From the IMG/VR virus record IMGVR_UViG_3300042569_002502: a DNA stretch of 64,000 nt; one strand, 5' to 3'. The notes under the pieces are model-generated. The model was not told where the DNA came from and made no database searches. It saw only the letters and a list, made by a program, of their open reading frames with translations. This DNA comes from a virus (Duplodnaviria; Heunggongvirae; Uroviricota; Caudoviricetes). Every line of letters begins with the position of its first letter. Positions within the stretch are counted from its first letter, which is position 1. The translations under genes were made by a program, and so were the position numbers. Of this stretch, positions 16,035 through 60,329 are shown piece after piece.

Positions 16035-19000
16035 TTAACATTTATTATTTTTAATTATTGTTCCTGCTTCAGCCAATGTGTAGCCCATGTCTACAAGCAT
16101 TTTTGTGTTTAATTGCTCAGATGAATATGTTTTTCCATCTTTAAGAGACACTGTTTTTTCAGTAGTTGTAGACTCCAAAGATACTAAATTTTCATCTAAA
16201 TATGATAAAATTTCATCATCTTCTTTTTCTTGTTCCACTTTTAAAAATCCATTATCTATCTTAGATTTTTTAGCTACATCATACATTTCTACAGCCCTGA
16301 AAGAGTCTCCCCAAGCATTAACCATTTTATAAATATATTCAGTAATAACAATATTTTGTCCATCTTTATTCATTGTATATTCATTAGTAAATGGTATATC
16401 TCCGCTATATATTTTTTTGAAAAGTCCTTTTTTAATATAAGAATAATCACCCTTCTTTCTCATAGCTTCTTTCTCATATTTATTTCCCACTTCCCATGTA
16501 AACACAACATAGTCAGAGTCTGCTTCCCTGGATTTTGTATTAAACTTAATCAATTGAGGAATATCTCCAGTTTCCATAGGTTTATTAAACCCAGATAAAT
16601 TTCTAAAAAAATCAAAATTTTTATATCTCCAATTACCAAATTGATCTTGTTTTTTAACTAGTCTTCTACTAGGAACAACATCTCCATCATTCCAATTATT
16701 TCTTTGAAAAACTCCTAATTTATAAAAATCATTAAGATTTGGAATTGTCTCAAGCTTTGATAGGGTCTTATTGTAGATTTCTTTAAAATCTTCATAAGGA
16801 ATAAGAGATGTAAATGATATTGGAGACCTATTTAATCCAGATTGCAAAACAGCGAGCCTAACTAAGTTTCCATATAAAGGACTTTTTATACCTTTAAAGT
16901 ATTGTTTTAGTTCTTCAAAAGCATAGATAATTTGATTTTGATCATACACTTTATTATCTCTACCAACAATCTTTAAATTGTTTGTTCCGTTTTCTAGTTT
17001 TTGAGAAAATACAGGAACAAGACTATTTATTAAAATATTATCTTTTAAAGGATGTTTGCTAGATTTTTTAACATCTACAATAAAATCTGACATTTGTTTA
17101 GCCACATTGTTATTTTCTAAAAGAATTCTTTGTACCATTGTATTAAGATCTCTATCATTCTGCACTGCCCAATCAAAAAGATCATTCACTGCCTTTTGAG
17201 AAATTTTAACAAAATCCCTATCCGATTCATTTATATACGGAAGTAACACTTTTTCCATAACTCCTCTAACATTAGTTTGGTCAGAAACAAGTATTGTAGA
17301 AAGAGCATTTCTTAATTTAAGCAATAAATCACTTAAATTTCCTATGAAAGAATTTTCTAATATATCATCTACAGAAGATATAATAGATGTTTTTGCTTTT
17401 TTAAGTTGTTCCATTTTCTTAAATACTAAAAATGGATCATTAAAAGAAGCTGTATCAAAATTAGAACCCTGTGTAACTAAGTATAGCTGATTAGCCATCT
17501 TAGCATACTTAACAAACTCAGATAGGATAAATCTTTGATCTGCTTTCTGCTCTGGAGATAAATTTTCTCCTTCTCCAATCATATCCCATAATTTACTCTT
17601 GCTAGGTATTTTAGTGGGCTTTGTAATAGATGAATCATATTTAGAAATAACATCTTCAAATATGTCCCCAATAAATAACCAAGAATACCCAGACCTTTCT
17701 ATGGATTTTAAATAATCTCTCACAATGGGTTGGTTCATGAAATAAGCAATAGTGTCGATTGGTACACCTATCTTAGCTAAAAACAACCATGTACTAGCTA
17801 CATTAGGAGTGGCTCCTAATTCCATAATCCAGGGTCCTTTAGATATATCCACATATCCATCAATAAACTGTCCATTTATATCTGATATATCTTGGCCTTC
17901 TGCATTTTCTATCATAGAAAGTGTAGGAACTTTTTCTCCATCCACTTCTATACTGTTATACTGTTCAAAGTTAATTTCTGCATCACCCAACCACTCTCTG
18001 TCAGCAGCATCCTGTATTGCTAATTTATTTTTATCTATGTAAATAGGAGATCTCTGATTTAATGAGTGATTAGTTTGACTTACAGCAGCAATACCAATAG
18101 CATATTTACCACTAACAAATGCTTGTCTAAGTCTTGACATAAACACCCTGTTTAGCATGTTTCCTGTAGAATCATAGTTAAAAGCCCCCACTCCTAATTT
18201 ATCAGAGATTTTTTTAGATAAATCTTTAAGTTGATCTGCGGAGTTTGGAGAAGTAAGTCTTTTGAAATTTTTAGGATGAGAAACAAGTTTTTCACAAGAC
18301 TCTATATATTCATTTTCTAAAGACTCTTTGTACATTTTGTCTTTAAACTCTTCTAATAAAATCTGCTGTACATCCCAATTAGTTAATTCAGAAAGTTTTT
18401 TACCAAGTTTTTCTAATCTTTTTATAAAAATTTCCTCAATATCAGCAACTAATAATTTACCGTCTTCAGTTTCTTTTTCAAACATTTGTTTAAAAATAGG
18501 AATCCATTTATTAGCTGTTTTGTCACTAGATATTCCCAAAGAAATATCACTGAATAAAGACTGTAAATCAGCTGTAGATATTTTTTTAGCTTCTGCTTTA
18601 TCTATTTTGCTTTGTAAAATATCAAAGAAAATATCTTCATATTTATTTTTGTTATTAGGATCTATACCAAAAAATGGTACAATCTCTATATTTCCTTTAG
18701 CATTTTTAAATACGTTTTTAAAGTATATAGAAAGTTTATCTATATCAAAGTCAGATCCCACTTTCTGAACCAATGCTGAGGGAATTACAACAGAGTCTCC
18801 AAATTCCTTAGGAAGAAATCTTTTAATTTTAAAAACATCAATAGAGTTTTGCTTTTGTGTAGGAATACGGTATGCAAGTCCAGATAGAATTTTTTGTCCT
18901 TCTGGAGTTTCATTTAAATATTTTAAAAGCTCTTCGTCAGACAAATCACTCTTAAACCATCTACCCACCATTATTTCACACACACGTTTACCATCCTCAT

Positions 19001-36409: not shown

Positions 36410-37545
36410 TTAAGGGGCAACATTTAAATGTAAGACTGCCACTCTTTGTCTAGTTTGTCCGTTAAACTGTGTAAAAGAACCTACAACGTACACTAAATTC
36501 TGTGCTTCATTTATTTTTATACTCCTAACAAAAGTTGAAGAATCTGTGTAAAATCCAGTGGAAATAGGCCAAGAGTTATCATATGTTCCGTTTGAATTTA
36601 TTTTTACAATTCCTCCAGAAGTGTTGCCATTGTAACTTGTAAACTTACCTCCTATAACTATTTTACCATTAGACTCCCCACTTAATGCATATCCTAAATT
36701 AGAAGTGGATAGATAAGAACCAAATCCAGATCCAGCATTAGTTTTAAATGTATTATTAATTGTGTTATCTGTATTAATTTTAACAGGAACAATCCAATAA
36801 TTTGGGGAGCCAGTATTATTTTCTCCTACCGTTATCACTGAATTATCAATAGTTTGATGTGTAACTGTTGGGTAAGCACTTGTACTAGGGTCTAAATTAT
36901 AATTCACTATAAAACTTCCTGTGGAACTTATCTTAAATATTTTTGATATTACTGTTCCATTATAGTTATTAATATTGGCCCCAGTAATTATAATATCTCC
37001 ATTATTTAAAACTTCTACTGAACCAGCCTCGTTATTAATCCCAGTGCCTGTTACTAAAGTGGTATCTATACCTCCATTTGTATCCACTCTAACAATACGA
37101 TTGGCAGAAGAACCATTATAATTAGTAAATGCTCCTACTATTACTATTTTACCGTCAGTTTGAATATCAATATCTCTCACTTGTCCTGTAAATCCTGTAC
37201 CATATACAAAAGAAGAATCTATTGTACCGTCAGAATTTAATCTAATTATACTATTGGCAACAGTACCATTATAACTTGTAAAAGCTCCTCCAACTAAAAT
37301 TTTATTATCTGATTGTATTTTAACTTTATACACTCTTCCATTAAATCCACTTGTTAATCCAGTGAATGTTGGGTCAGGAACCCCTGAAGAATTAAATCTA
37401 ATTATTCTATTATATGTAACACCATTGTAAGCAGTGAAATCTCCACCAACAACATAATTATTATTAGAATCATAATCCACTGTCCATGCGTCATTATTTA
37501 ATCCTGTACCACTGTTAAAACTAGTGAGTATTTCAGCTGGTAATG
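36410..37545 (-). repeat. tandem delta-60-type beta-propeller repeats (protein level) at C-terminus of tail protein
   Basis: Repeats DFTAYNGVTYNRIIRFNSSGVPDPTF, AFTSYNGTVANSIIRLNSDGTIDSSF, AFTNYNGSSANRIVRVDTNGGIDTTL, NINNYNGTVISKIFKISSTGSF and KFTSYNGNTSGGIVKINSNGTYDNSW, spaced about 48-60 aa apart. Confidence 0.6.
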
Positions 37546-40500
37546 TAGTGGTAGTAGTTGTAGTGCAACTTCCTTCACCATCTATTACAGTGTCTGGGCC
37601 AACATGCCAGCAAGTAGTTCCGTCATATATCCATTTATTATTAAATAGCAATACAGGAAATTCTAATGCTGGATCATAATAAACTGTACATCCTATTCCA
37701 AAACTACTTCCACAACTACTATAAACAGTTAATGATGAACCATAACATCCAGGATCTGGAATACAACCTTCATTATATCCAGCTATTGCTTCACAACAAG
37801 TGTCCTGTCCACCATAACCAACACAAATACAGTTACTAAGATCTGTTACAACCACTGAAGTAGTTGCTGCAACTGTATAAACACCGCTTAATACAGTGGT
37901 TACAGGAGCTGCTGTAGCTGTTATTATTGAAAAATCAGTAATTGTTCCACCGCTAACATTTGTAGATATACCATCAACTGTTATTGTAATAGTTGAACTA
38001 TCAACAGGAACATTAAAACCCCTAAAATTTGAAGTATTCCACGCAGTGAATGTAGTATTCTCTTTCACTGCTAAACTACCACTTGATGGTGTATCAACAT
38101 CTAAAGTTTGAAGGTTACCACTAACATCTGTGTAATCTATGTATAAACGACCATCAACAAAATATTCCCCTGCTAAATCTGCTTCAGATAAAGACCAATT
38201 TATTGTAGAAGGAGGAGGACATGTAAAGAAATTATACAACATTCCTTCTGGTCCAATTAAATAATAATTTGTACCATCGCTATAATATAATGTACCACCG
38301 TTAAAAGGAATTGTACATGCTGGATCAGTATAAAAAATAGTGAGATCTACTGTTAAACTAGATGTAGTGGTATAATATGTTGTTGTTGGGCCTTCAGGAT
38401 ATAAAGAACAAGCTTCAAACTCTGTTCCACCTGAAGGTCCTAATACTACAGGATAGTTACTACAATTAATTTCTATAGATTTTACCGTTATGTTAGAAGG
38501 ATTGTTATGGTCTCTAACAGCAATATACCAAGTTCCATTATCCACCTCATCGTTTTGTAAATGAGTGACATTAAGACTAAACACTCCATTTATTGCTCCA
38601 CTTTCACTAGAATAAGGGAAAGAGTTTATATCATATTCTCCACTACCGCCAGTAATATATCCTTCTGGATAAACTCCTGTAGGGCCCACTGAGATTCTTC
38701 CACAACCATTTCCTACACATATACAAGTGTAAACAAAAGAAAAATCAATTGGTATTGGAACTGTTGTAGTAGTAGTGGTTGTAGGAGGAAGTTCTTCAAA
38801 AGCAAGAGCTTCAAGATCGCATCCTCCATTTATTCCTGAATAAAAGAAATTATTTTCTGCTATGTAAAAGTTTGGAATATAACTGTGAAAGCTTACCCAA
38901 CTTTTGGTGTTCATGTTAAAAGAAAGTGTCCAAGATTTATTACAGAAATAATTTGTATCAGACAGACTCACTACATCTTTAAATGTAACACCATTTACAA
39001 CTCTTTCTACATAAAAATCTTTTGTTGCTTCGTCATATTTAATATTTGAACTTTGAGGAATATAATCAAATTTTGATATAATCACTCTATCAAACTTACT
39101 ATCATACACTCCATGTAACCCAATTCCATTAAAGTGATTGTCTGTGTCTACTGTTGGATAGTATCTGAGTATTTCAAAAGCTAAATGATCCGTAAAAAAC
39201 TTATTCATTCCAAGCCCAAAAGCAGAAAGATCTGATGCCTGGTTACCAGTAATTAAAAATATTTGTCCTCTTTTAGCATCAACAGTAATTTGTCCTTGAG
39301 GAATTTTTAATAAAAATTTATTTTGACTTCCTACATATCCAAGATCTGTTTCAGCAAAATCAATTGGAGGAGCTGATTTAAATAATGTATCATTACCTAA
39401 ATAAGCTGCTTGTGGATTGCTTGTTTGTACAGTAAGCATTGTATTGTAAAGCAAAGACTTGTTTTCAAATCTTGCTAATACAGCTTTATTTTGAATACCA
39501 TCTAATGATGTTAGTTTACCAAAATTTTGTGGAAAATCAAAATAAGAAGTTGCACTATAGTTCAACCAGTTATTCACTCCTGAGTTTGTAAAACTCTCCT
39601 GTTGATCAGAATATATTGCCCTGAAAGGAAAAGTTGTAAAACACACTTTAGGTTCCCAGTTATTAGGAAGATGCGAAAAAAGATTTTCCTTGTTTTGTTT
39701 TGAATATGTTACGTTGTAATAATATGTATTATCTTGAGCAATAGGTACAACTGACTCTTGTAGCCAGTTATCAGGAATACCTGTACTTACATGTGGATAA
39801 AAATCTCCTTCTTGGTTGTTAAATGCTTGTCTAAGGTCTACGTTAATAGAAGATTCCACATAAAAGTATGGAATACCATAAGCATATAAATACATTTTTC
39901 CATCATAATAAGTTCTATTAGGATTTACAACAACAGGAGGCCCAGGTGTTGGTGCAGGAAGTTGACTATTAGGGCAATCAAAATTGTGAGCTTTAATAGA
40001 TATAATATTCTTCATTACAGTGCCTCCTGTTGGAGTGTAGTCACTAAGAATAGATCTAGAAGAAAACCAATATTTAGGGTAGGCTATATTTCCCACCTCA
40101 TCATAAAATATATCTGAATCATCTGGAGCATTCACTCTATCATCTATAAATAAAGGAAGTTTAGTTTTAAAAGCAAACTTTCCTATAAAAGTGTCCCCAC
40201 CAAAAACTGTATCTATTGAAGGCTGCCCATTAAGAATATTATCTATTTCTATATTTCTTTGGAAACCTGTATCAATTGTGTCATATGAATATATTTGTCC
40301 CCATTGGTTAACAAATATATTTTTCATTGATCCGTAATAAGAGATAACATCAATATGCCTTTCCTCGCTAGGAGTGGAACATTTATCATCATCAGAAGCT
40401 ACAAATCTAGAATTATCTGTAAAAAGACTCACCCCTACAGGAGCAATAGAAGGACTTTTATCTGGAAATGGAAGAGGTGTTACAACATTACCATTTCTAG

Positions 40501-43099
40501 TTTCTATAGTTTTTAAAAATACAGAAGACTCTCTATTATAATTATTTATATTTATACCATTAGTTTCTCCTATAGCCTGTACTCCCTCAAAAATATACTG
40601 AGCAACCGCCAGAGGTCTTTGTTTCACTCCTACATTATTGATTATATCAGCACTATAATCATAGCTAGCAATAGAGTTAAAAGAATATGCGTAATTTCTT
40701 CTTGTAATACCGTTAATATAAATTTGTAGATAAGCCTGATAAGCAGTGAATAAAACTAAAGGATCTAATGTTCCTGTTATAGAAGCTATTTCTGTACTAG
40801 AGTTTAATGCATCCTTTTGAGCCTCTTTTGTTAATAATTTATATAAAGCATGTTCTCTAACTTGTACAAAATGAGCCTTTCCGCCACCAAGAATAATATT
40901 TTCTAATTTAAGGACATTCCCTAAATAAGGTTGTCCAAATAAAGTTTCTGGAGAATTAAACACATGTCTGTATTTAGAATCATCAGAAGAAAATCCCTCT
41001 AATTCAGGTGTAATGTAATAATCTGATAATGGTATAGTGGTAGACTCTGTAAATGTTACAGTGCCTGTTAAAGCTATTGGGGTGGATAGAGATGTAATTG
41101 TAATAAGAGTACCAGCAGTCATGTTAGCTGTAATAGGTGTATTTGTGTAACAATCTGTATATTGATATGTACCACTTACACTAGGTGTGCCTGTATACAC
41201 CTTACACTCATCTTTGTAGGCATTACTTTTTGAAAGTATAAAAGGATCTTTTCTAAGATCGTTATATGGGTAGTTTGGATAATAATAGTCTGTCCCCTCT
41301 CTATTGTATTTCCCTACATTCCTTAATATCCCTTTAGATATAATGGATTTGTTTGTACTTCTATCTCCTCTAACAATTTTAAAAGCAACAATACTTTCTT
41401 TTTGTTCTTTTGTTAAATTAGATGTATATATTAATTGAGAAACTTGTTGAATATCTATCCTCACTCCTATTGGGAATATAGCATCATTTTGCATCACTGG
41501 TGAAAAACCTGGTCCTAATGAATAAACAGGACTTTCAAATATAGGACTAACTAATACATCAGGAAACTTATGGTGCCTAATTGGTTGATCTGCTAATTCA
41601 CCCCATACATCTATATTACAAGGATATTTTTCTGTAGATTCCCAATAAGCAAACTCTCCATATTGATATGGACCTTTATATGTAATTTTATTTAAAGCTG
41701 CTAAGTATTCAGGATTAAAACCTGTAACAGATGCTGTATTATAAATTTTCCAATAAGCACTATATCCTACACCACCAGATTCAAATTCAGGGTCTCCAAC
41801 AAAATCAGGGTTTGTTGTAGGCACTAATGGTTCAGAAGTTTCATTAAATGTAATAGCTCTTCCAGGAATATGAAACCCATCTGTTTGTTTTCCATTTTTT
41901 AATAAAAAAACAATTTCAAATGCATACACTTCATCCCTTAAATATCCTCTATAATTAGTGGCATTTAACTCATCAGCGTATGTTTCAGTGTTAGGAATTC
42001 TATAAGATTGCCATTTAAGATCTATTTGATTAGCAATTTGTTGATAGTTAATTCTATCAATAGATGTAAGACCGTCCCACACTAGTACATCCTGCACTGT
42101 TGTAAGATCTTCTGCTATTTCATAATAAGGAAATTTTTCAAAAATGTCATTAATTGTAAGTCTAATTTGTGTTACATTTTGACCAGTGTAGGTAATCTCT
42201 CTACTAACATTATTTATAAAATATGTTCCAACTAATTCTACGGAAGAAATAGCATTAACGGTTTTTATCACTGCTAAATTAAAATATTTAAACAGTCCTG
42301 ATATATCTAAATTAGAGACATTAATTACAATAGATCTTCCCACCGTATAGTTAAAATTTAATGTAGTTTTAGCTGCATCAAAAATAGGTGTTGGATTAGT
42401 AACAGAATAATATGATGTATATGAATTCCCATTAGCATCACAATATTGTATTGCAAATTGATATGTTCCAGCTTGCAACTCTCCACCTGTATTAATATCC
42501 ACCACTTCTAGTTGTGGAATTTCAAAGTTGGGTTGAACATTTAATTTATTACAATCTAGTTCTTTTGTTTCTGTTATTCCACATAAATTAATATTTCCAC
42601 CTAAAGCTATTGGGTAGGATAAAATATATGGTATGTTTTCAATATCTAAATATCTTCTTGGATTTAAACCATCCGTCCAATAAATTTCAGTGGTACAATT
42701 AGTTATTTTATGTACCACTTTATGAATAGGGTTGTCTATATTAAAATTTAGACAAGTGGCAGATACTAATGTATGGTAGGTACAATCATTATTATTCATA
42801 TACCCAATCTCAGAAGCTCCTGAAGATGGATTTGTAAGAAAGAATATATGTTTATTTTTTTCTGGAATAAAATGTGTCCCAATAAGATGATAGTCTTGGG
42901 GAAAGTTTAAGCATAGTTCATTTCCTGGTTCATTTTGATAGTTAACACTGTCACTATCAAAATTCTCTATAGTAGCATTAAGAGCATAAGAAAGCTTACC
43001 CTTTGCTATTTGATTAGCAGAGCTATCCATATCAAGACCAATTCTTGCTAAGTTATACTCTTCTCTTATATTACCAGCGGATTGATTATTTTCAGCCAT
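36410..43099 (-). CDS. giant modular tail protein (2229 aa) with C-terminal delta-60-repeat beta-propeller
   Basis: ATG start. N-terminal approx. 1300 aa is a structural core. Then comes a poly-Thr linker (TTTTTTTVPIP), a Cys-rich module bounded by two CICVG.G motifs, a second poly-Thr linker (37545-37570), and 5-6 repeats of G.FT.YNG...IIRLNSDGTIDSSF (delta-60 repeat). Confidence 0.75.
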   Translation of the reverse strand: MAENNQSAGNIREEYNLARIGLDMDSSANQIAKGKLSYALNATIENFDSDSVNYQNEPGNELCLNFPQDYHLIGTHFIPEKNKHIFFLTNPSSGASEIGYMNNNDCTYHTLVSATCLNFNIDNPIHKVVHKITNCTTEIYWTDGLNPRRYLDIENIPYILSYPIALGGNINLCGITETKELDCNKLNVQPNFEIPQLEVVDINTGGELQAGTYQFAIQYCDANGNSYTSYYSVTNPTPIFDAAKTTLNFNYTVGRSIVINVSNLDISGLFKYFNLAVIKTVNAISSVELVGTYFINNVSREITYTGQNVTQIRLTINDIFEKFPYYEIAEDLTTVQDVLVWDGLTSIDRINYQQIANQIDLKWQSYRIPNTETYADELNATNYRGYLRDEVYAFEIVFLLKNGKQTDGFHIPGRAITFNETSEPLVPTTNPDFVGDPEFESGGVGYSAYWKIYNTASVTGFNPEYLAALNKITYKGPYQYGEFAYWESTEKYPCNIDVWGELADQPIRHHKFPDVLVSPIFESPVYSLGPGFSPVMQNDAIFPIGVRIDIQQVSQLIYTSNLTKEQKESIVAFKIVRGDRSTNKSIISKGILRNVGKYNREGTDYYYPNYPYNDLRKDPFILSKSNAYKDECKVYTGTPSVSGTYQYTDCYTNTPITANMTAGTLITITSLSTPIALTGTVTFTESTTIPLSDYYITPELEGFSSDDSKYRHVFNSPETLFGQPYLGNVLKLENIILGGGKAHFVQVREHALYKLLTKEAQKDALNSSTEIASITGTLDPLVLFTAYQAYLQIYINGITRRNYAYSFNSIASYDYSADIINNVGVKQRPLAVAQYIFEGVQAIGETNGININNYNRESSVFLKTIETRNGNVVTPLPFPDKSPSIAPVGVSLFTDNSRFVASDDDKCSTPSEERHIDVISYYGSMKNIFVNQWGQIYSYDTIDTGFQRNIEIDNILNGQPSIDTVFGGDTFIGKFAFKTKLPLFIDDRVNAPDDSDIFYDEVGNIAYPKYWFSSRSILSDYTPTGGTVMKNIISIKAHNFDCPNSQLPAPTPGPPVVVNPNRTYYDGKMYLYAYGIPYFYVESSINVDLRQAFNNQEGDFYPHVSTGIPDNWLQESVVPIAQDNTYYYNVTYSKQNKENLFSHLPNNWEPKVCFTTFPFRAIYSDQQESFTNSGVNNWLNYSATSYFDFPQNFGKLTSLDGIQNKAVLARFENKSLLYNTMLTVQTSNPQAAYLGNDTLFKSAPPIDFAETDLGYVGSQNKFLLKIPQGQITVDAKRGQIFLITGNQASDLSAFGLGMNKFFTDHLAFEILRYYPTVDTDNHFNGIGLHGVYDSKFDRVIISKFDYIPQSSNIKYDEATKDFYVERVVNGVTFKDVVSLSDTNYFCNKSWTLSFNMNTKSWVSFHSYIPNFYIAENNFFYSGINGGCDLEALAFEELPPTTTTTTTVPIPIDFSFVYTCICVGNGCGRISVGPTGVYPEGYITGGSGEYDINSFPYSSESGAINGVFSLNVTHLQNDEVDNGTWYIAVRDHNNPSNITVKSIEINCSNYPVVLGPSGGTEFEACSLYPEGPTTTYYTTTSSLTVDLTIFYTDPACTIPFNGGTLYYSDGTNYYLIGPEGMLYNFFTCPPPSTINWSLSEADLAGEYFVDGRLYIDYTDVSGNLQTLDVDTPSSGSLAVKENTTFTAWNTSNFRGFNVPVDSSTITITVDGISTNVSGGTITDFSIITATAAPVTTVLSGVYTVAATTSVVVTDLSNCICVGYGGQDTCCEAIAGYNEGCIPDPGCYGSSLTVYSSCGSSFGIGCTVYYDPALEFPVLLFNNKWIYDGTTCWHVGPDTVIDGEGSCTTTTTTTLPAEILTSFNSGTGLNNDAWTVDYDSNNNYVVGGDFTAYNGVTYNRIIRFNSSGVPDPTFTGLTSGFNGRVYKVKIQSDNKILVGGAFTSYNGTVANSIIRLNSDGTIDSSFVYGTGFTGQVRDIDIQTDGKIVIVGAFTNYNGSSANRIVRVDTNGGIDTTLVTGTGINNEAGSVEVLNNGDIIITGANINNYNGTVISKIFKISSTGSFIVNYNLDPSTSAYPTVTHQTIDNSVITVGENNTGSPNYWIVPVKINTDNTINNTFKTNAGSGFGSYLSTSNLGYALSGESNGKIVIGGKFTSYNGNTSGGIVKINSNGTYDNSWPISTGFYTDSSTFVRSIKINEAQNLVYVVGSFTQFNGQTRQRVAVLHLNVAP

Positions 43100-45266: not shown

Positions 45267-46490
45267 TTATATTCTTTCTTCAAATTCACCTATTCTACCT
45301 GTTTCAGTGTCATACATGGTAGCAATAGCAGATCTGATATTGTTTACATAATTATTGTCAGCATGCCATCTATCTGCTCCAGATAAAGAAGGCATTTGTT
45401 GTATTCTCACTCCTTTAATTTCTTTAGCCATATAGAAGTGTTTATCTCCTGTATGAACCTCTCTATATTTAGCATTTCCAAAACTGTAAGCATCTTTTCC
45501 TGTAGCAAATAACAAAGGAAGATCATCTATCTTACAATTTCCATGATGGTATCCTATAAATGTGTTTCCTAAAACAATACTTTTTGTTGTTGAGTGGTTT
45601 CTTTGAAAATGTATATTAGAGTCTTTTTTAAAAAATACTTCTAGTGCGTGGGCAAGATAAAAATCTTTAGTTCTATCATGGTTCCCTTGAACAAGAACAA
45701 CATGCACTTCCTTCGCATTTTCATTTAAAAAAGATATTGCTTCTACAAGAACATCAAATCCAGCCTCATATTCACTAGCATAATCTGCTATCACATCTTG
45801 GGGAGTACCGTTTGTAGTTTGGTTTTGATAATTATCTGTGTGGAAAAAATCATTACCAATAGGAAGTACTATTCTATCTATAGTTGAAACTGCTCTCACT
45901 TTCCCTATCAAATTCTTTACCATTCTTAAAAAAAGATTTTTTCTCTCTTTTAAACAATTTGGACCATCTATCACTTGTTTGGCCAAATGAAAATCTGCAA
46001 TAGAAATTTCTACATCAATATCAAAAAGATGTACATGATTAGATTTATCTAAAGGAACGTAAGATGGTTTATAATTATTTAAAAACTTTGCAAAATCTTC
46101 TGGAGTGTAATCTTTTGGTGCTTTTATTTTGGAAAAAACAGAAGATGTAAATTTTCCATTAGGAAGTCTTTTAGACCAATAGTTGGTTATTACATATTTG
46201 TCTAGATTAATTTTATGTAATTTGGCAAGTTCTATATCATTCTTAGGCTCAAAATCTACAACTATTGTACTTTCTGCTGTCCCTTTTTCTATATTAACCT
46301 TTCTAAAAGCCTCATATTTTTCATTAGCGTCTGTCAAAACTTGAGGAACAGACTCTTTTTCTTTTAATTCTTTTAACAATTCTGCCACTTCTTCTTCTGT
46401 AATTCCTAGTTTATCCGCATAAAAAGCTTTGGATTTTTTCCAACTTAAAAGTTTTTCTAATTGAAATAACAGATTTTGATTTTCTATCAT
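45267..46490 (-). CDS. calcineurin-like metallophosphoesterase
   Basis: 407 aa. MPP signature motifs are present in canonical order: DIDVEISIADFH, GNDFFHTD, LVQGNHDR, GYHHGN and HTGDKH. Confidence 0.7.
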   Translation of the reverse strand: MIENQNLLFQLEKLLSWKKSKAFYADKLGITEEEVAELLKELKEKESVPQVLTDANEKYEAFRKVNIEKGTAESTIVVDFEPKNDIELAKLHKINLDKYVITNYWSKRLPNGKFTSSVFSKIKAPKDYTPEDFAKFLNNYKPSYVPLDKSNHVHLFDIDVEISIADFHLAKQVIDGPNCLKERKNLFLRMVKNLIGKVRAVSTIDRIVLPIGNDFFHTDNYQNQTTNGTPQDVIADYASEYEAGFDVLVEAISFLNENAKEVHVVLVQGNHDRTKDFYLAHALEVFFKKDSNIHFQRNHSTTKSIVLGNTFIGYHHGNCKIDDLPLLFATGKDAYSFGNAKYREVHTGDKHFYMAKEIKGVRIQQMPSLSGADRWHADNNYVNNIRSAIATMYDTETGRIGEFEERI

Positions 46491-52236: not shown

Positions 52237-53790
52237 CTAGAATTGTGGTATTTCCTCAATTAAAACGGTACGAGATAAATCTTCGATGAATACATCACAA
52301 CGATCTTTCATCCAGATTTCGTAACCAGGGAATTTGTTTGCAGAACTCATACCTTGAGACTTAGCAAAACCTAAGTGGTGACGAGTACCATCAATATATC
52401 CCCAAGTCATAGAAGGTGCACCCTTCATTCTCACTTCACGAATATTATTAATCATAGAACCATCAGACATTGGAGACACATCAAACACCATGAATACTGG
52501 AGTGCTCTTTTTGTTCTGACCAAATTCTAAGTTTGATTGAGGAAGATCTAACTCTTTTAAGTGAATTAGTTCAACACGACCAGTCTCACGAGTAACCATT
52601 GCATCGAAAGCAAAGTTGTAAGTGATGTGTTGACCTTCTCCTTGCATATAACGATTTCCAGAATCAGCCATGAAAGTAAGACCACTATTCAAAGCGTCAT
52701 TCTTTAAAGCTTGTTGGAATACATCAAAACCAGCTTCGTTAGTGTACATTTTAACCTTACGGTCTTTAACATCCACACGTCTGTAGAAAAGATCTCCAAA
52801 AACTGAACGGATTAAGTTAGCAGAGAACTCACCACGGTTGTATTGTACTAAGTTACCGTTGTTACGCATTCTGTGGTAAACACCTGCAGATGTACGCTTC
52901 AACTCTTGCTTAGAACCGTTTGTTTTCACTGTACCTGGTTTGCTCCAAATCATACGCTTAACTTTCAACTCAAGCATAGATTTACGCATCCAGAATTCAA
53001 TAAATGGTTCCCATTTAACATCATTACGAGTTAAAGGAAGTTGATTTCTACGTTGAGGAGCATATACTAAAATGTCTAGAGGCTTACCAGAAGCATCTCT
53101 CATCATTTTGTCATCAGCCCACTCAGTGATTTTGTGCTCATAACCATATGCAGAACCTAAAGATTCAAACATAGTGATTTGCTCACCTAAACGAGGAAGA
53201 CCTAAAAGATCTTGATCAAATTCACCAATAGCTGCATCAACTAATTCCAATTCAATACCAGTCTGTAAGAAGGTAGAGCTTACGAAATCAACTGTTGGGT
53301 TGTCAGTTACTAAAGTGAAAGTGTAAAGGTAGCCCATGTTCCAAGGAACAGGATCTTTAATTACGTAGAAACGAGGTCCATACTGACGAGATCCTACAGA
53401 AACAATAGCGTTCTTAGAGAACTCATTTGTGTCTAATACAAGAGAAAACTCTTGGCCATCAATACCAGGCTTGCTCAAATTGATTGTGCTATCTGGAACA
53501 TCAATGATTTTAGGAAATTTGTAAGGAACTTGTACTTGCCACTTCCAAGCATCACTGTTATTGTCGATGTAATAAGGAGTGCTCTTATTAATCATATCCA
53601 AAAAGTCATTGCTGTACAATGAGCTCTGAGTGTATAAGCTGATGATTTTTTTATCATAATCAGCAGGCTCAGTTGAGTGAAAGCTTTCCAAGTGGTTAGA
53701 ATCTGTTAATTTACCAACAGCACGTTTGTCCATAGAGGCCACACGAGCATAAGTAAATCCAGTTAAACCTGGAATAGTTTGAATTGCCAT
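52237..53790 (-). CDS. putative major capsid protein (517 aa)
   Basis: Size and position: downstream of the portal/scaffold-like gene, followed by a terminator. It has the longest preceding intergenic leader. No motif-level confirmation is possible by eye. Confidence 0.5.
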   Translation of the reverse strand: MAIQTIPGLTGFTYARVASMDKRAVGKLTDSNHLESFHSTEPADYDKKIISLYTQSSLYSNDFLDMINKSTPYYIDNNSDAWKWQVQVPYKFPKIIDVPDSTINLSKPGIDGQEFSLVLDTNEFSKNAIVSVGSRQYGPRFYVIKDPVPWNMGYLYTFTLVTDNPTVDFVSSTFLQTGIELELVDAAIGEFDQDLLGLPRLGEQITMFESLGSAYGYEHKITEWADDKMMRDASGKPLDILVYAPQRRNQLPLTRNDVKWEPFIEFWMRKSMLELKVKRMIWSKPGTVKTNGSKQELKRTSAGVYHRMRNNGNLVQYNRGEFSANLIRSVFGDLFYRRVDVKDRKVKMYTNEAGFDVFQQALKNDALNSGLTFMADSGNRYMQGEGQHITYNFAFDAMVTRETGRVELIHLKELDLPQSNLEFGQNKKSTPVFMVFDVSPMSDGSMINNIREVRMKGAPSMTWGYIDGTRHHLGFAKSQGMSSANKFPGYEIWMKDRCDVFIEDLSRTVLIEEIPQF

Positions 53791-53824: not shown

Positions 53825-55075
53825 TTATTGAAACCATGATGTTGTAGCACTGGCTGATTTCCCTGTTTTAACAGCAGATTTTGTCACCTGTCTAGCCACT
53901 TCACCAAACAATTCATTAGACTTTTTGGTGAGGCCTGTTTTTTGTATTGTAGATAACATAGGATCTTTTTCTAAAATTTTTAATAAAAGACCCACTTTAA
54001 CTTTCATTTCGTGGTTTTCTGGTCTTTTTAATTCTAGAATTGTTCTGTCAAAATCTGTTAAAGTTTCGCCAGAAGTTGTTTTATACTTATCTACTAATAG
54101 GAAATCTTGTAGTTCACCAGCCAGTTTTGGGTTAATTGGAATACCGTCAAACTCTTTTGTTTTCACTTTATCTTGCAAAATAGTTTGAACGTTATTATAA
54201 TATTGTTGTTTAACCGCTTGTTGTTGTTGTAATCTTTTTTCGTTCTCTTGCTCCATTTGTTGAAGCTTTGCTGATTCTTTTTTTACTAGTACTTTGTGGT
54301 GTTTTGCAGCTACAGTCTCAAGATCACCATAGTTCTTTAAACGCTCCACTTCTGTTGTAACATCTTCAGGATCAAATCCTTGATCAGCTAATGCTTGTTT
54401 AATCACTGCCACTTGATTAGCTTCCTCTGAAAGATCTAGTTCAGCAAAATTTTGTATATTATTATAAACACCAAAATATTCTTTAGGATCCACTCCTTTT
54501 ACAAATATGGCATCAAATGCTTGTTGATAGTCTTCACCAAATTGACCAATGAAGTTATTTACCACTTCAATAGCACCTTTCTTTTTCTCTGCATTAAACC
54601 TTTCTAAGAATTCTTCTGGGGTAGAAATTGTTACATCATCATCTTCTCCATCTTCCTTAGTAAATACACCAAGTTTGAATAAGTCATTAGATAATGCTGT
54701 AAATTGACTAACCTCTTCAGACTCTTCTCCATCATTGTTGTCAGCCTCTTCTGGTTTTGCAGGAGCCTTAGTAGGAGGCTCATCACTATCTGTTTCTTCT
54801 TCATCATCATCTCCACCTAATAAAAAATCCTGTAAAGACTTTTTAGTCTTTTCTTCTGTGTCTTCTTTAGGAGATTCTTGTTTAGGTTTATCTACAGTAG
54901 TTTTGGGGGAAGCAGGTTTTGGATCTTCCTCTTTAATATCTTTAATATCATCAGGATTACTAGTGGAAGTTTCTGCACCCATAAGATCATTAAGTAATTC
55001 TGCATTACCCAATCCCATTTCCATAGTGTTCTCAATCCCAAAATTAAAAGATGGACTATCTAGATTTTCAGCCAT
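53825..55075 (-). CDS. acidic low-complexity protein, scaffold-like (416 aa)
   Basis: D/E/K-rich N-terminal half (DDDEEETDSDEPP...EEADNNDGEESEE), coiled-coil Q-rich middle, and position between the portal and capsid genes. Confidence 0.5.
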   Translation of the reverse strand: MAENLDSPSFNFGIENTMEMGLGNAELLNDLMGAETSTSNPDDIKDIKEEDPKPASPKTTVDKPKQESPKEDTEEKTKKSLQDFLLGGDDDEEETDSDEPPTKAPAKPEEADNNDGEESEEVSQFTALSNDLFKLGVFTKEDGEDDDVTISTPEEFLERFNAEKKKGAIEVVNNFIGQFGEDYQQAFDAIFVKGVDPKEYFGVYNNIQNFAELDLSEEANQVAVIKQALADQGFDPEDVTTEVERLKNYGDLETVAAKHHKVLVKKESAKLQQMEQENEKRLQQQQAVKQQYYNNVQTILQDKVKTKEFDGIPINPKLAGELQDFLLVDKYKTTSGETLTDFDRTILELKRPENHEMKVKVGLLLKILEKDPMLSTIQKTGLTKKSNELFGEVARQVTKSAVKTGKSASATTSWFQ

Positions 55076-55192
55076 ATGTAGTTTTTTAGTTGGTTTTCAG
55101 ATGTAAAAGTATATTATATAAACTTAATATCAAAGACTATATGATGTATATGGACCATTTTTGCTGATAATATAGCATTAATCATTTTTACT

Positions 55193-55723
55193 CTAATCAA
55201 GTTTATTTGTTATTGTATCATTTAATATTCTAAAACTTCTGATAGGAGCAAGGTCTGTTAGTGTCACTTGTTGTATTTCCACTCCCCACTTCTTTGCTTC
55301 CACTCTCATTTTTTTAGTGAGAATATTATCTAATTCAACATCTGTGCATTCATCAAGAGTCATAGACATAATAACATTTTTTATAATACTTTGTGACATA
55401 TCTGCTATAGCATCTTGAGCATCAAACACTTCTAATAAAAATGTCTTTACATCTGCTATTTTATATTTAATCACCCCCTTGACAACAATGTTTTGTTTGT
55501 CCTTAGTATATAAAGACTGGGCAGAGAGGCTTAATGTGGTGACAACAACATGCTGTACAATCACTTCATCCACTATAGGTATTTTAAAATAAAATCCTGG
55601 ATATAGATTTTTTCTATATTTACCAAGTCTTAAAAGGACAGCTTCTTCATAGTCCCTAATAATGATGGCTGGGGATATTTCCAGCCACCATTGTGTAAGA
55701 AGGTCTATTAATTTATCAAACAT
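55193..55723 (-). CDS. SPFH/band-7 (stomatin/prohibitin/HflK/C-like) domain protein
   Basis: 176 aa. LLRLGKYRKNLYPGFYFKIPIVDEV...TKDKQNIVVKGVIKYKIADVKTFLLEV...IADMSQSIIKNVIMSMTLDEC...KKWGVEIQQVTLTDLAP follows the SPFH consensus closely. ATG overlaps the portal stop. Confidence 0.65.
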   Translation of the reverse strand: MFDKLIDLLTQWWLEISPAIIIRDYEEAVLLRLGKYRKNLYPGFYFKIPIVDEVIVQHVVVTTLSLSAQSLYTKDKQNIVVKGVIKYKIADVKTFLLEVFDAQDAIADMSQSIIKNVIMSMTLDECTDVELDNILTKKMRVEAKKWGVEIQQVTLTDLAPIRSFRILNDTITNKLD

Positions 55724-58308
55724 TATTTTTTAGTTTTTGCTCTACCTTTTGCATTTTCTTTTGCAATAGCAAGATCGTTTGCTTGATTTTCCCTGGCCAC
55801 TTGAAGTTTTTCTCTTTCCACTTGAAGTTTTTGGTTAGCCAATCTGTTCTTAGCATTTATATCTGCCATTTTAGTTTCGTAGTCTTTAGTGGTTCTCACT
55901 TGTTCTGCAGCCAGTCTACTCATCTCTAAAACATCTGGTACAGCATTTTGATTTACATCTTCGCTCTCCACTTTACCATATCCTGTAGCAGAAATGATAG
56001 CAATTTTCTCTTTAGATAGTCTATCAAGTTCTTTTTGGTAATCATCGTGAGCAAGTTTTTCTTCATGCTGCTGTTGGGCCTGTTGAAGGGCAGCTTGAGC
56101 TTGTTCTTGCTGTTGTTCCATTTGCTGCTGCTGCTGTTGCATTTGTTGGTCTTGCATTTGTTCCTGTCTTTCTTTAAGCGTCTTAAACACTTTCTTCATC
56201 TGTCTAACAGAGTTTGTAGAATACAACTCAATAACATCATGAAGACTGGCACCATTTTGAAGAGCAGCTTGAGAAAGACTTCTAATCTCATTAAACAACT
56301 TCTGATCTTCTGGTCTGTTAGTTAAAAACACTTTAATATCTCTAAACTTAAGATCGGATCCATTCACCTGAACAAAAGCAGATTCTCCTTCAGAAGTGAT
56401 GTATGATAGGGTGGATTGTGGTTTTTTACTTTCTACATATAAAGCTGCGTCAATGATTGCTTGATATAGTTGGCCCAATACATATTCATGGGCTACAAAT
56501 AATGGCTCTGTCTGGGAATAAGATTGAGTAAGTGCTGCATTAGTTCCTGTAGCAGATTCACTTGCAGATATAGAACCCATTCTTTGTCTAGACATACCGA
56601 TTAATTCCCAACACTCAGTTTTAAGTTGCATAGCAAGCTGATAACGAGATTGAATTTCCTGTGTACGTGTAAGATCTATATCTCTAAACTGGTTAAAAGA
56701 GCTAGGAGATTTTAAATTCTCAGGACTATCATCTATAAAAACTATACCCCTGTTTCTTGCTTCCATTTCCCAAACATCTAAAGCATCCTGCGCATCCCCA
56801 TCTTTTGGAATAGGAACGTGTCTTATGGATGTTAAATACACTTTACCCACTTCCTTTTCAAGAAGTTTATAAAGCTGGTTCATACAAACATTGTACAGCA
56901 CTTGGAAAGGTTTCATAAGGTCTACTAAAGATTTAGCCTCTGTATTTTTCACCTCATGAATAGTTCCTATTATAGGACAATAATTTAATAATTTGTAAGG
57001 TTTTATATGGTAGATGTCTGGTCCTATCTTTATTCCTTGATACCATTGATTAATCCATCCCCATTCTAAAGACTGCTGTGTAGGAATTGTGTTTGATTTA
57101 TAATTTTCGTCTACAAGCATAGATTGCTCATTTCCCATCTCATCCAAATAAATCAACTTACCTATTTTCTTTTTAGAAATCCAATATGCCCTAACCACCA
57201 CATATTTGTATCCAAAAGAAGACACATTTGATGTAAGGCCTAAGAAATCTTTTAATCCATCATTGTTTTCTTTCATTTCACTTTCTATAATCATACGTGT
57301 CTGAAGAACAGCAGGATCATAAGTGTCATATTGAACAGAATCTATACCTGGAGCAGCATCAGGATTTCCAAGGTTGGATTCACGCACATTAATTAATCCG
57401 TAATCTTGGAGAGATGAACGTAAATGATCTATCTCTTCCTTAGTAAGATCTGGAATACTTTCAATTATTTCGGAGAGTTCCATCACCTGCACTATACCAG
57501 CAGCATATGCTCCCTGCGCTCTTCCTGTAGGATCTGATATATATTTTCTATCTGGAGTGGTAAGAAACCATGTATTTTTAGGATTGGCCACTTCTATATT
57601 AAACCCAAGTTTTGAATTATCCTCATATATATGATAGAATTCTCTAGCAGATATAAGCATATCTCTAAAAGCATCTTCACTTTTTTCTTTTAGAACAAAC
57701 TCGGCTTTTTGGCATGTAAGAATATGATTGGCCCATTTTTCAGCTATAGATGTGTAATTATCAAGTTCATCCTTTACATCATCCATTGTCATTTGTTGAA
57801 GCTCCTCTTCCCCAAGTTCTTGTCCTTGGAGGGAGGCTTGTTCCATTATCTTTTGTTTAGCCTGACTAATTACAAAATCTTGTAATATCTTAGTTTTAAA
57901 TTCTAACTCTTCAGACTGACTATCTTCATCAAAAGCTTTCACTCTAAATGCATCTGGTCTTTTAGAAATTTCTCCTACAAGCTCATTAATTGGTGTAGTG
58001 AGAATAGAATAATGTTTTACATATGCAGGAAGTTCAAGATCTGTTGTTAGCATTTCTGTAAAACTCTTCACCTGAGGCTCCTGATAAAAATCTTCCATTC
58101 TTAAAATACCCTTAATAAGATCGTAGTTTTTAACAAATGTATCTCTGTTTTTTACATATTCAGCATAGGCCTTGTTAGCAAAATAGTCCATTGTGTTTTT
58201 CACCCAACTTTCATCTTCCTTCTCTTTATCAGTTTTAAACTGATCTGGAAATATGTTTAAATAGGCATACCTTATGGTAGCATCTTTTGTATATCTTATT
58301 ATTGCCAT
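55723..58308 (-). CDS. portal protein candidate (861 aa)
   Basis: Immediately downstream of TerL, overlapping it (ATG/TAA). Large size. C-terminal Gln-rich coiled coil (QQMQQQQQQMEQQQEQAQAALQQAQQQ). Confidence 0.6.
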   Translation of the reverse strand: MAIIRYTKDATIRYAYLNIFPDQFKTDKEKEDESWVKNTMDYFANKAYAEYVKNRDTFVKNYDLIKGILRMEDFYQEPQVKSFTEMLTTDLELPAYVKHYSILTTPINELVGEISKRPDAFRVKAFDEDSQSEELEFKTKILQDFVISQAKQKIMEQASLQGQELGEEELQQMTMDDVKDELDNYTSIAEKWANHILTCQKAEFVLKEKSEDAFRDMLISAREFYHIYEDNSKLGFNIEVANPKNTWFLTTPDRKYISDPTGRAQGAYAAGIVQVMELSEIIESIPDLTKEEIDHLRSSLQDYGLINVRESNLGNPDAAPGIDSVQYDTYDPAVLQTRMIIESEMKENNDGLKDFLGLTSNVSSFGYKYVVVRAYWISKKKIGKLIYLDEMGNEQSMLVDENYKSNTIPTQQSLEWGWINQWYQGIKIGPDIYHIKPYKLLNYCPIIGTIHEVKNTEAKSLVDLMKPFQVLYNVCMNQLYKLLEKEVGKVYLTSIRHVPIPKDGDAQDALDVWEMEARNRGIVFIDDSPENLKSPSSFNQFRDIDLTRTQEIQSRYQLAMQLKTECWELIGMSRQRMGSISASESATGTNAALTQSYSQTEPLFVAHEYVLGQLYQAIIDAALYVESKKPQSTLSYITSEGESAFVQVNGSDLKFRDIKVFLTNRPEDQKLFNEIRSLSQAALQNGASLHDVIELYSTNSVRQMKKVFKTLKERQEQMQDQQMQQQQQQMEQQQEQAQAALQQAQQQHEEKLAHDDYQKELDRLSKEKIAIISATGYGKVESEDVNQNAVPDVLEMSRLAAEQVRTTKDYETKMADINAKNRLANQKLQVEREKLQVARENQANDLAIAKENAKGRAKTKK

Positions 58309-60329
58309 TATGTAAACAATTTACGTTTTTTAGTATTAAACAATCCATTAGATTGTGAAAATAATGTATTCTTTGGTTTTTTAGAATATAATGCTTGCAC
58401 TCTATCATCTCCTGATCCGCCTATTTTTCCCATTATAGGATCCATTTTCATAGCTTGTGCTATGGCTAGTTCTGCAGCAATAATTCGGTCAAAGTTTCCT
58501 GAATCATTATATTGTATCATTTCTTCTAACAAGACAGGATCAAATATCTTACTTATTCCCAGCACTTCCTTTATAACATCTCCCTGTTCATTGGTTTCTT
58601 TGTATATAACACTTTCTGTGTATTTTTTTAAACAGTTGTGCAAATAGTCAATTATCTTTTCACTGGAACGGTGTATTCCATAGTCTCTCTTCACTGTTGT
58701 ATTAGGAACAATCTCTTTTAACCATTCGGGCTGCTTCTCTAAATAATGAGCATCTCCCTTAGCTTTCATATACTCAATAAATGATATATCATCATTCTCA
58801 CACAACGTACGAGCATTATAGAATTTAATCAACATCCTGGCCTGCTCTTCCCATATTTCCTTTTTATCAGGACGTGCACAATAGGAAGCAACAAACATAT
58901 CTTGATATTTTTCCCCTGTAAGATCGTGCATTCTTTTATAAACATATACAGATCCTAAAGAAGAACTGTATGCTGATTTACCTTGTCTATATGGGTCCAC
59001 CCCAGCAACATACAATCCATAAGGAGGATTTTCTACAGGAAACTCATATATCACTACAGGAGCGTCTTTAAGATCACTATTCTTTAATGGAAAATTTGAA
59101 ATAGGTCTTTTATCTGTAAATTCATGGGCTATTTTTTCTCCGTCATTAAATAATATGACAGGAGTGCCTGTTCTTTCTTGCTGTAAAAGTCTGGCCTTTT
59201 GTCTTTTAGCCCCCTCTATATCAAATATATTTGTATCTTCATTTAAGAATATATCATCCACTTCCTGGGGATAGTACATCTTTTCTTTTAAATAGGCAAT
59301 TCTGTCTCCTGCCTTTTTAAGCTTTTCTAAGTTTGAGTTGGTAATCTCTGTAGCTTTCTCCTCATTAGACACTAACATCTGTATATTATGGAGATCACTT
59401 GATGCAGGCTGTTCCAAAAAAGCTCCTAATGTAGAAGACTCTTTTGCTTCCATTCTATATTTATGGGAAATAAACAACCCATGAATACGTTTATCATCCT
59501 TACTATTATTATATGTAAGGAAGTTAAAATTATCTACATCAAACATTAGAGATTTAGCATCAAGAAATTTCTTCATATCTCCCCCTGTTCCTGTAAGAAT
59601 TGGAGAACATCCCCAACCAAATGGTGTTGTAAAACCAGGAACAGCTGCCTGCAGTCCTCTAAGAAAAGATCCTTTTCCTATCTCATCAATAATTAGTTTA
59701 CGGGGTTTTGTACCAGCAATTGCTTCTTCATTATTACCCTCATCTAAGTTACGAATAAGAATAGAAGAAAAAGGAATACGTTCTCCACTCTTAGTTTTGA
59801 TACCGAGGGTCACTTGATTTTTCCAATTATCCTCAATCCTCTGCCATCTCCAATATTCAGGAATAAAATTTAACCCCTTATCAATCTTATCTGTAATCAG
59901 TTTTATATCTGGAGCGTTCAATCCAGCAATAATATTTTGAGAATTCTCATCAAATGTAGCACCCCATGCAATATAACTTGCCTCTAAAACACTCTTGGCA
60001 AAACGTCTAATTCCTAAAATAACCAGGCCTTTCTTTTCTCCTTGGGCTCTATCAATTTCATTAGACACCAACCACTCATTATCTCTTAAGAATGGATTGG
60101 CATATTTTTGAGCTATTCTTCCATAGCTATCAATTACATCCACTTCTGTATGCCAGATGTTTAAGTGCCAATATAAAAAGGGGTTGATATACACCCCATC
60201 CATCATAGCTCCATTTAAACAAACATCTTTATGGAAATCAAAGAATTGTTTACATTCTACAGAATCTCTGTCTGGAATTCGTTTTTGATTTATAAACCAA
60301 TCTTTATAATCTATATTTTGTAATTCCAT
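58308..60329 (-). CDS. terL: terminase large subunit
   Basis: 673 aa. ATPase Walker B (KLIIDEIGKG) and deviant Walker A (LGIRRFAKS). C-terminal RNaseH-like nuclease signature VAGVDPYRQGKSAYSSSLGSVYVY. Confidence 0.8.
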   Translation of the reverse strand: MELQNIDYKDWFINQKRIPDRDSVECKQFFDFHKDVCLNGAMMDGVYINPFLYWHLNIWHTEVDVIDSYGRIAQKYANPFLRDNEWLVSNEIDRAQGEKKGLVILGIRRFAKSVLEASYIAWGATFDENSQNIIAGLNAPDIKLITDKIDKGLNFIPEYWRWQRIEDNWKNQVTLGIKTKSGERIPFSSILIRNLDEGNNEEAIAGTKPRKLIIDEIGKGSFLRGLQAAVPGFTTPFGWGCSPILTGTGGDMKKFLDAKSLMFDVDNFNFLTYNNSKDDKRIHGLFISHKYRMEAKESSTLGAFLEQPASSDLHNIQMLVSNEEKATEITNSNLEKLKKAGDRIAYLKEKMYYPQEVDDIFLNEDTNIFDIEGAKRQKARLLQQERTGTPVILFNDGEKIAHEFTDKRPISNFPLKNSDLKDAPVVIYEFPVENPPYGLYVAGVDPYRQGKSAYSSSLGSVYVYKRMHDLTGEKYQDMFVASYCARPDKKEIWEEQARMLIKFYNARTLCENDDISFIEYMKAKGDAHYLEKQPEWLKEIVPNTTVKRDYGIHRSSEKIIDYLHNCLKKYTESVIYKETNEQGDVIKEVLGISKIFDPVLLEEMIQYNDSGNFDRIIAAELAIAQAMKMDPIMGKIGGSGDDRVQALYSKKPKNTLFSQSNGLFNTKKRKLFT

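Follow-up and report, generated by a model that had tools for sequence, protein, structure and literature searches.

What is a gene for an SPFH-domain protein doing among the genes that build a phage head? The question is raised by a stretch of DNA of 64,000 nucleotides (nt), referred to here as the window, from a virus of the class Caudoviricetes (IMG/VR record IMGVR_UViG_3300042569_002502). In it, an open reading frame (ORF) of 176 codons on the minus strand, at 55193..55723, follows directly behind the portal gene and precedes a putative scaffold gene. The original prediction, made by eye, had taken the product for an SPFH, or band-7, protein of the stomatin/HflC kind, and had known of no other SPFH gene in the head-assembly module of a phage. 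We find that the ORF, which starts at an ATG, is real and that its product is a minimal protein of the SPFH-domain kind, with a Band_7 match, a confident structural model and a low ratio of nonsynonymous to synonymous change (dN/dS). As to its role, we suggest, tentatively and at slightly less than an even chance, that the product is a late-expressed factor that would target either the host membrane or the SPFH complexes of the host and their clients, and that its gene landed at the portal junction without taking part in head building.

A minimal SPFH protein behind the portal gene

The assignment to the SPFH, or band-7, proteins was confirmed by profile, by pairwise comparison and by structure. 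A search with the Band_7 profile had been proposed as the first check, and it is clearly significant: Pfam Band_7 (PF01145) matches the product with E=8.9e-25 and 88.2 bits, against a cutoff of 23.6, with protein residues 21-160 lying on profile positions 2-147 of 176. When solved structures were searched with phmmer, stomatin (E=5e-12), QmcA (2e-11) and HflK/HflC (~1e-6) were matched over residues 21-162. The two motifs that had first drawn attention, GK.R...PGFYFKIP and KWGVEI..V.L.DL, turn out to be the two ends of the match to Band_7 and to the structural relatives. The AlphaFold2 model that we used was built on 84 diverse family members, as 25 close homologues gave only a pLDDT of 56; it has a pLDDT of 94.5 and a pTM of 0.83, and the SPFH1 and SPFH2 alpha/beta fold is present in it. 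With Foldseek, matches of probability 1.00 were obtained for stomatin, HflK, QmcA, prohibitin, erlin and flotillin, with E=8e-15 to 1e-10 for the first four and E=8e-15 to 1e-8 overall, the best cellular fold match being human stomatin (E=8e-15, query TM-score 0.77). The protein misses the HflK/HflC equivalog cutoffs (NCBIfam TIGR01933/TIGR01932), scoring 67.4 against 159.4 bits for hflK and 51 against 134.4 for hflC. The exact protein carries the automatic IMG name 'regulator of protease activity HflC', which overstates current knowledge of it.

The likeness to stomatin and HflC does not extend to architecture, since only about 20 residues precede the domain, 16 follow it and the coiled coil is missing. 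All parts of the protein are encoded on the minus strand. Codons 2-16 (55676..55720; FDKLIDLLTQWWLEI) form a predicted amphipathic helix at the N-terminus, with a pLDDT of ~95 and marked conservation. SPFH1 and SPFH2, which make up the Band_7 match and the matches to solved structures, occupy codons 21-160 (55244..55663); in the model, SPFH1 consists of the beta strands of residues 19-72 and SPFH2 of residues 78-160, with a strand at 78-89, helices at 92-146 and a second strand at 148-160. Codons 161-176 (55196..55243) encode a short, flexible C-terminal tail (pLDDT 58-75) with the motif IRSxRL, of which R165 is at least 90% conserved among the 84 family members, and the stop codon that follows is TAG (55193-55195). 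Alignment to stomatin stops at residue 162, and the protein terminates where the CC1 helix starts in other SPFH proteins. The CC1/CC2 coiled coil and the cap region are absent, as the chain ends 16 residues past the last SPFH2 strand with no long helix, whereas the solved relatives, of 250-420 aa, run 90-250 residues further, into the coiled coil of the cage wall and cap. What is left amounts to the body of an SPFH protein, the part nearest to the membrane, and, because the coiled coil that closes SPFH cages is missing, we would expect no cage of its own.

Where the phage protein has its N-terminal helix, HflC and QmcA carry a transmembrane helix, with HflC residue 20 and QmcA residue 25 aligning to residues 19-23 of the phage protein. 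The phage helix has a hydrophobic moment of 0.48 and is not transmembrane-like in the clade of close relatives described below. When Kyte-Doolittle hydropathy is averaged over 19 residues, this segment of the window protein does not reach 1.6, the threshold for transmembrane segments; values of 1.6-2.2 occur at the N-terminus of about 25 of 145 family representatives. Neither a lipobox nor a signal peptide was found in the N-terminal segment of the 176-aa protein. Within the clade, M1, F2, D3, K4, W12, W13 and P18 never vary, and the helix motif is conserved across the wider family. The model suggests that the amphipathic helix replaces the hairpin or transmembrane anchor of other SPFH proteins.

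The gene is as tightly packed behind its neighbour as had been described, and that neighbour is the portal gene (861 aa; 55723..58308, minus strand) by both Pfam P22_portal (E=2.8e-14) and phrog_6547 (E=6.5e-101). The overlap of ATG and TAA noticed earlier is also there. At 55721..55725 the minus strand reads ...AAAAAATAATGTTTGAT, a TAATG in which the portal stop and the SPFH start have one base in common, the SPFH ATG taking its A from the TAA stop of the 861-aa portal ORF. In clade relatives the two genes overlap by 1 nt or are separated by a spacer of a few bases. Given the overlap, the portal and SPFH genes are probably translationally coupled. The stop of the gene for the terminase large subunit (TerL) and the portal ATG form a TAATG as well (58306-58310, minus strand); both junctions are thus one-base overlaps and the three genes form a tightly packed chain. 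Because the SPFH gene is the last of this TerL-portal-SPFH unit, its product is probably made late. Since the gene ends in TAG, recoding of that codon was considered and rejected: read-through adds only five codons before a TAA, and long late ORFs are normal in code 11.

Conservation in the clade and contexts elsewhere

The SPFH gene is old in its lineage and under strong purifying selection. The conservation and synteny that had been looked for in relatives were both found: 166 IMG/VR loci encode the protein, and the order portal, SPFH, 416-aa protein is kept in all of the best 80 of these 166, to which the identities, lengths and gene orders given here refer. In these 80 loci the protein is 74-100% identical to that of the window and always 176 aa long, and the gene order, where the contig reaches, is TerL, portal, SPFH, 416-aa protein, capsid and 322-aa protein (80/80). 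The capsids are 94-100% identical to the window protein, the portals 80-97% over full-length matches, and the 416-aa proteins 62-89%, apart from a single locus (L001) at 100%. The exact 176-aa sequence occurs on contigs of up to ~112 kb and in 120 blocks of the contig collection, and the length of 176 aa is invariant in more than 120 clusters. Pairwise dN/dS is ~0.075 for the SPFH gene, with synonymous sites near saturation, and 0.058 for the capsid gene. G+C content at third codon positions (GC3) is 0.249 in the SPFH gene against 0.248 in the portal gene, and it equals that of the TerL gene too. A megablast search of 50,697 deposited phage records gave no match at the DNA level and hence no cultured member of the clade.

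Beyond the clade, the protein has many relatives. When 1.84 billion cluster representatives were searched exhaustively, 4702 relatives came up at E<=1e-3, and 844 remained with a cutoff of E<=1e-10. Of the top 150, almost every one has a length of 168-190 aa and aligns end to end at 30-50% identity, and on these alignments the window protein is a member of a large, phage-borne family of SPFH-only proteins of ~170-185 aa. Among viral proteins, the model is matched best by that of a 173-aa 'HflK' protein from an uncultured Caudovirales phage (TM-score 0.87). PHROGs hold no dedicated family, and a single weak match was obtained there, to phrog_200 (E=3.5e-8). Two scans of 185,579 species genomes with narrow patterns found no bacterial or prophage copy, which is weak evidence of absence; one of them returned nothing, and the other just a weak, partial match of 25% in a metagenome-assembled genome of the Phycisphaerae. 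The truncated SPFH subfamily looks phage-specific.

Such a small protein could be taken for a spurious or decaying ORF, the pseudogenised fragment of a captured host SPFH gene, and it is indeed shorter than any characterised SPFH protein. However, a length of 176 aa held without exception in more than 120 clusters, a dN/dS of 0.075 and a GC3 equal to that of the neighbours are at odds with decay, and so is conservation from end to end in a family that counts 844 representatives at E<1e-10. We give this explanation next to no chance.

The surroundings of the gene change from one kind of genome to another. In the 29 groups of loci that we surveyed outside the clade, no family of neighbours turns up repeatedly. 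Homologues with 30-59% identity occupy neighbourhoods of at least ten further kinds, three of which are different late-operon positions in crAss-like phages. The tie to the head module, to which the original prediction had drawn attention, is therefore not a property of the family. In a sister lineage (L206; capsid 89%, portal 65%) the gene lies at the same site, in the order portal-SPFH-scaffold (3358..3867; SPFH 42-44%). Other crAss-like phages have it in the order homing endonuclease-SPFH-104 aa-TerL-portal (L190/L191; TerL 43%, portal 28%, SPFH 53-55%) or ring 2 ... ring 1-SPFH-muzzle (L185 and L202; SPFH 49-55%). In L199 (SPFH 55%) it comes after a homologue of the phrog_704 protein of the window.

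Further afield, the gene directly follows TerL in a 45-kb podovirus (L084, MW202733; SPFH 24%). It precedes a primase gene and, in the first of two such groups, SbcCD (L209 and L235; 36-39%); it follows the gene for a DNA polymerase exonuclease subunit (L222; 40%), lies near an endonuclease VII gene (L207; 38-40%) or precedes QueE (L217; 35-37%). In L083 (54-55%) it is found four genes downstream of a lysozyme gene, with an HNH gene also upstream, and in L168 and L169 (36-37%) it is part of a cluster of small, early-type genes, which in L169 is divergent from the head genes. In MW202733.1, the coding sequence annotated as a 'prohibitin-like protein' (6001..6546) starts 132 nt downstream of the onset of homology; the annotation has probably placed the start too far downstream, and an ORF of full length would start directly behind the TerL stop. 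Homing endonuclease genes flank the SPFH gene in L191, L083 and L207, and in some members of the clade itself, L198 (6579..7001) and also L192, a 140-aa HNH endonuclease gene lies exactly between portal and SPFH. We make no claim of an enrichment of TerL beside the family, as TerL is clearly within two genes in only 3 of the 29 groups (L191, L206 and L084) and several of the TerL PHROG matches among the neighbours may be multiple matches of the same proteins.

The nearest cultured relatives lack the gene at this site. Leptolyngbya phage Lbo-JY46, the closest of them by its portal, has TerL, portal, a 407-aa gene in place of the 416-aa gene, and capsid, with no SPFH gene between, and in crAss001 no SPFH gene is found at the portal junction, where a head-fibre gene follows the portal gene. 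Moreover, SPFH genes from unrelated contexts (53-59%) are closer to the window gene than is the same-site gene of L206 (42-44%), a pattern repeated in a rough neighbour-joining tree without support values. Because the same-site gene is the more divergent one, this indicates exchange or replacement of the SPFH allele at the portal/scaffold site. Its distribution marks the SPFH gene as an autonomous, mobile accessory gene, which passes from one phage genome to another and from place to place within a genome. As the contexts of the family vary and the nearest cultured relatives are without the gene here, we consider the portal-adjacent position in this abundant environmental crAss-like lineage to be one landing site, and not evidence of head function.

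These contexts also allow us to weigh a role in head assembly, as the original prediction seemed to imply, in which the protein would be a portal tether or chaperone at the inner membrane that nucleates the procapsid, or a minor component of the prohead. T4 gp40, a membrane-associated portal chaperone, would be the functional parallel. A place right after the portal gene, kept in every clade locus examined and in L206, is what such a role would lead one to expect, selection is as strong as on structural genes, and elsewhere in the family the gene is a neighbour of TerL or is flanked by tail ring and muzzle genes. However, Lbo-JY46 has the same TerL-portal-scaffold-capsid order without the gene, and crAss001 does without it at the portal junction. 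Around the homologues of 30-59% identity one finds genes of replication, repair, queuosine and lysis, with no recurrent neighbour family; the L206 allele, although at the same site, is much more divergent than alleles of unrelated contexts, and an HNH gene can split SPFH from portal. An assembly factor is, in our opinion, rather unlikely.

The same late-gene positions would suit a protein that is packaged in the virion, delivered with the DNA and active on the host membrane at entry. In 4 of the 4 crAss-like lineages that were seen, the structural array contains the gene, and in one case the muzzle gene comes right behind it. The portal-crown zones of crAss001 are believed to be filled by ejected cargo proteins (review, PMC10136315), and a full-length SPFH lipoprotein occurs at low count in virion preparations of Vi01-like phage (PMC10892097). 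That lipoprotein belongs to a different, longer family (phrog_200), however, and the family studied here is also present in non-structural neighbourhoods, which makes ejected cargo quite improbable.

Possible action on the host membrane

We favour, with the reserve expressed at the outset, a factor directed at the host membrane or at host SPFH complexes. Kept as the last gene of the tightly packed TerL-portal-SPFH unit, the SPFH gene would yield its product late in infection, and the conserved N-terminal helix, together with the SPFH1 face, would bring the protein to the host inner membrane. With the SPFH body and the first CC1 residues (IRSxRL) retained and the cage-closing coiled coil missing, it would build no cage itself. 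It could bind to SPFH assemblies of the host or to their clients, among them FtsH- and NfeD-type proteases and membrane microdomains, by opening, capping or mimicking those assemblies. The outcome would be a turnover of membrane proteins, or an organisation of the membrane, altered in favour of late infection.

Several observations weigh against this proposal. In the four crAss-like lineages seen, the gene is always inside the late structural array, as a virion or assembly role predicts, although that array is about half of such crAss-like genomes. For 113 neighbours of 29 relatives, the lists of the 25 leading Pfam and the 25 leading PHROG families contain neither NfeD nor FtsH, and a search with the PADLOC defence-system models gave no family at E<=0.01 and so no hint of a defence context. 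Given the lack of a signal peptide, the SPFH domain would lie in the cytoplasm, where it would be out of reach of the periplasmic domains of HflK/C and could meet only SPFH proteins that face the cytoplasm; if the N-terminal helix served as a signal anchor, as it does in HflC, the SPFH domain would be periplasmic. The host is probably one of the Bacteroidota, to judge by the crAss-like gene set and by a Por_Secre_tail gene that is also present on the contig of a relative (L083).

A host SPFH cage may not be required as a target at all. The protein might be a late stabiliser or reorganiser of the inner membrane, acting in lysis timing, membrane integrity or exclusion, by which holin triggering would be delayed, the cell protected from membrane-targeting abortive-infection effectors, or superinfection blocked. 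SPFH domains are established as membrane-organising modules, the amphipathic N-terminal helix is conserved, and a variable genomic position suits an autonomous function in the membrane; furthermore, one relative of 55% identity lies four genes downstream of a phage lysozyme gene. On the other hand, this is the only one of the 29 context groups near a lysis gene, and none shows linkage to a holin or spanin gene. There is no PADLOC or other defence association, and many relatives are in replication-type clusters, which suggests that the timing is not uniformly late. We regard this explanation as possible but on balance unlikely.

The favoured reading, that of a factor directed at host membranes or SPFH complexes, has a more far-reaching form. 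SPFH cages (HflK/C, stomatin, prohibitin and flotillin) have only recently been resolved, and how they open and how they regulate their clients is debated. Abundant SPFH modules without a cage wall, under strong selection in many unrelated phages, suggest that viruses exploit the SPFH system, and, if they do, the short proteins would be ready-made dominant-negative probes of it. We can imagine, as speculation that is more probably wrong than right by some distance, that coiled-coil-less SPFH proteins of ~175 aa are widespread viral 'cage breakers', which open or cap host rings of the stomatin, QmcA and HflK/C types. They would insert into such a ring by means of the N-terminal helix and the SPFH body and, having no wall-forming helices, would leave the cage opened or capped. 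If true, cage breakers would reprogramme FtsH- and NfeD-type proteolysis or membrane microdomains, and would be both a new host-takeover factor and a probe of cage function.

The window around the gene and known SPFH systems

By its gene content, the window is the late structural array of a crAss-like phage, since it holds matches to the crAss-type capsid, CrAss_Ring_2, CrAss_Ring_1 and crAss_MUZ. The head genes are all on the minus strand. Upstream of the portal gene is that of the terminase large subunit (673 aa; 58308..60329; phrog_6681, E=4.1e-85), and beyond the SPFH gene come an acidic protein of 416 aa (53825..55075; pI 4.5, 86 D+E) and the crAss-type major capsid protein (517 aa; 52237..53790; Pfam Crass_capsid, E=1.5e-28; phrog_11589, E=9.9e-33). 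CrAss_Ring_2, CrAss_Ring_1 and the crAss_MUZ muzzle protein follow downstream on the same strand. The 416-aa protein matches no family of known function, and its only match is to phrog_16294, whose function is unknown; a putative scaffold is a reasonable guess from its place upstream of the capsid gene and its composition.

The SPFH gene is followed by an intergenic region of 117 nt (55076..55192, minus strand), which we aligned in 12 clade members. It contains a 15-mer, TTAATGCTATATTAT (55167-55181, minus strand), that is letter for letter the same in all 12 of these diverged members, and an element TTTG-N21-TACTTTTA (55104-55134, minus strand) that is conserved in the clade and resembles promoters of Bacteroidota. 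This spacer may hold an internal promoter for the next two genes, and we infer that the SPFH gene probably closes the TerL-portal-SPFH unit, with a separate promoter for the genes that follow. The 15-mer was rejected as a general promoter motif of the phage because it has no repeat elsewhere in the window, where 16 near-matches compare with 12.8 expected. A scan of 53700-60600 for sigma-70 promoters and terminators gave no enrichment over shuffled sequences.

Other features of the window deserve mention, all of them on the minus strand. A single ORF of 4157 aa (16035..28508) has no Pfam match and is flanked by further giant unassigned ORFs of 2150, 1315, 1388 and 919 aa; these are perhaps unusually large crAss-type proteins of the cargo, virion RNA polymerase or tail. 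In the muzzle protein, of 2229 aa (36410..43099), DUF5122 beta-propeller repeats (E=2e-45) are fused to an N-terminal portion of the crAss_MUZ type (E=2e-37). A 407-aa protein (45267..46490), encoded within the structural array immediately before tail ring protein 2, matches phrog_704, 'DNA repair exonuclease' (E=1e-49), and nothing in Pfam. Its homologues in L199 and L202 are likewise among structural genes, and the phrog_704 label may for that reason be misleading. An 805-aa protein (1610..4027) has at its C-terminus a Peptidase_S74 domain (E=6.5e-15), an intramolecular chaperone of the kind typically seen in tail spikes or fibres that cleave themselves.

SPFH proteins as such are not new to phages, which qualifies the original prediction. 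Full-length SPFH genes are listed, with speculative functions, in T4-like phages (PMC1524935), in Vi01-like phages (PMC10892097) and in an N4-like phage (PMC13239085). An SPFH-superfamily protein is listed in a prophage satellite (PMC4936722) and an SPFH-related domain match, cd03408, in a gut crassvirus (bioRxiv 10.64898/2026.08.21.746148), again with speculative functions. In the literature outside subscription journals, we found neither the short coiled-coil-less family nor an SPFH gene next to a portal gene described. The full-length phage proteins are longer (BFVD matches of 260-320 aa), their annotations are those of lipoproteins or membrane proteins, and for none of them has a place beside a portal gene been reported. 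The phrog_200 'lipoprotein' family (Vi01-like gp200; RB43ORF139c, 44RRORF098c and Aeh1ORF064c of T4-like phages; N4-like GIB1) is also one of phage SPFH proteins of unknown function, and it overlaps the window protein only in positions 106-258 of a 379-position profile.

A precedent for phage manipulation of FtsH and SPFH proteins is provided by lambda CIII and the HflK/C-FtsH axis, where HflK/C modulates the degradation of lambda CII by FtsH (as cited in PMC4936722). The parallel is one of function only, as CIII has no homology to the 176-aa protein, the window is without lysogeny genes and a link to FtsH is hypothetical. With the cellular SPFH proteins (stomatin, QmcA/YbbK, HflK/HflC, prohibitin and flotillin), in contrast, the phage protein has the SPFH1 and SPFH2 fold and the sequence family in common. 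It differs from them in size (176 aa against 250-420 aa), in having no clear transmembrane segment, hairpin or lipid anchor, and in having neither CC1/CC2 nor a C-terminal cap, so that, unlike them, it is not expected to close a cage by itself. Its gene has as neighbours those of the portal and of the acidic 416-aa protein, and no NfeD or FtsH partner gene. Its true counterparts are the other short SPFH-only phage proteins, which are known only by automatic annotation, are 29-59% identical to it and occupy other genome positions. Two of them, the 173-aa 'HflK protein' of UniProt entry A0A6J7WFI0 and the 'prohibitin-like protein' of MW202733, share with it the family, the length, the N-terminal helix and the RSxRL motif.

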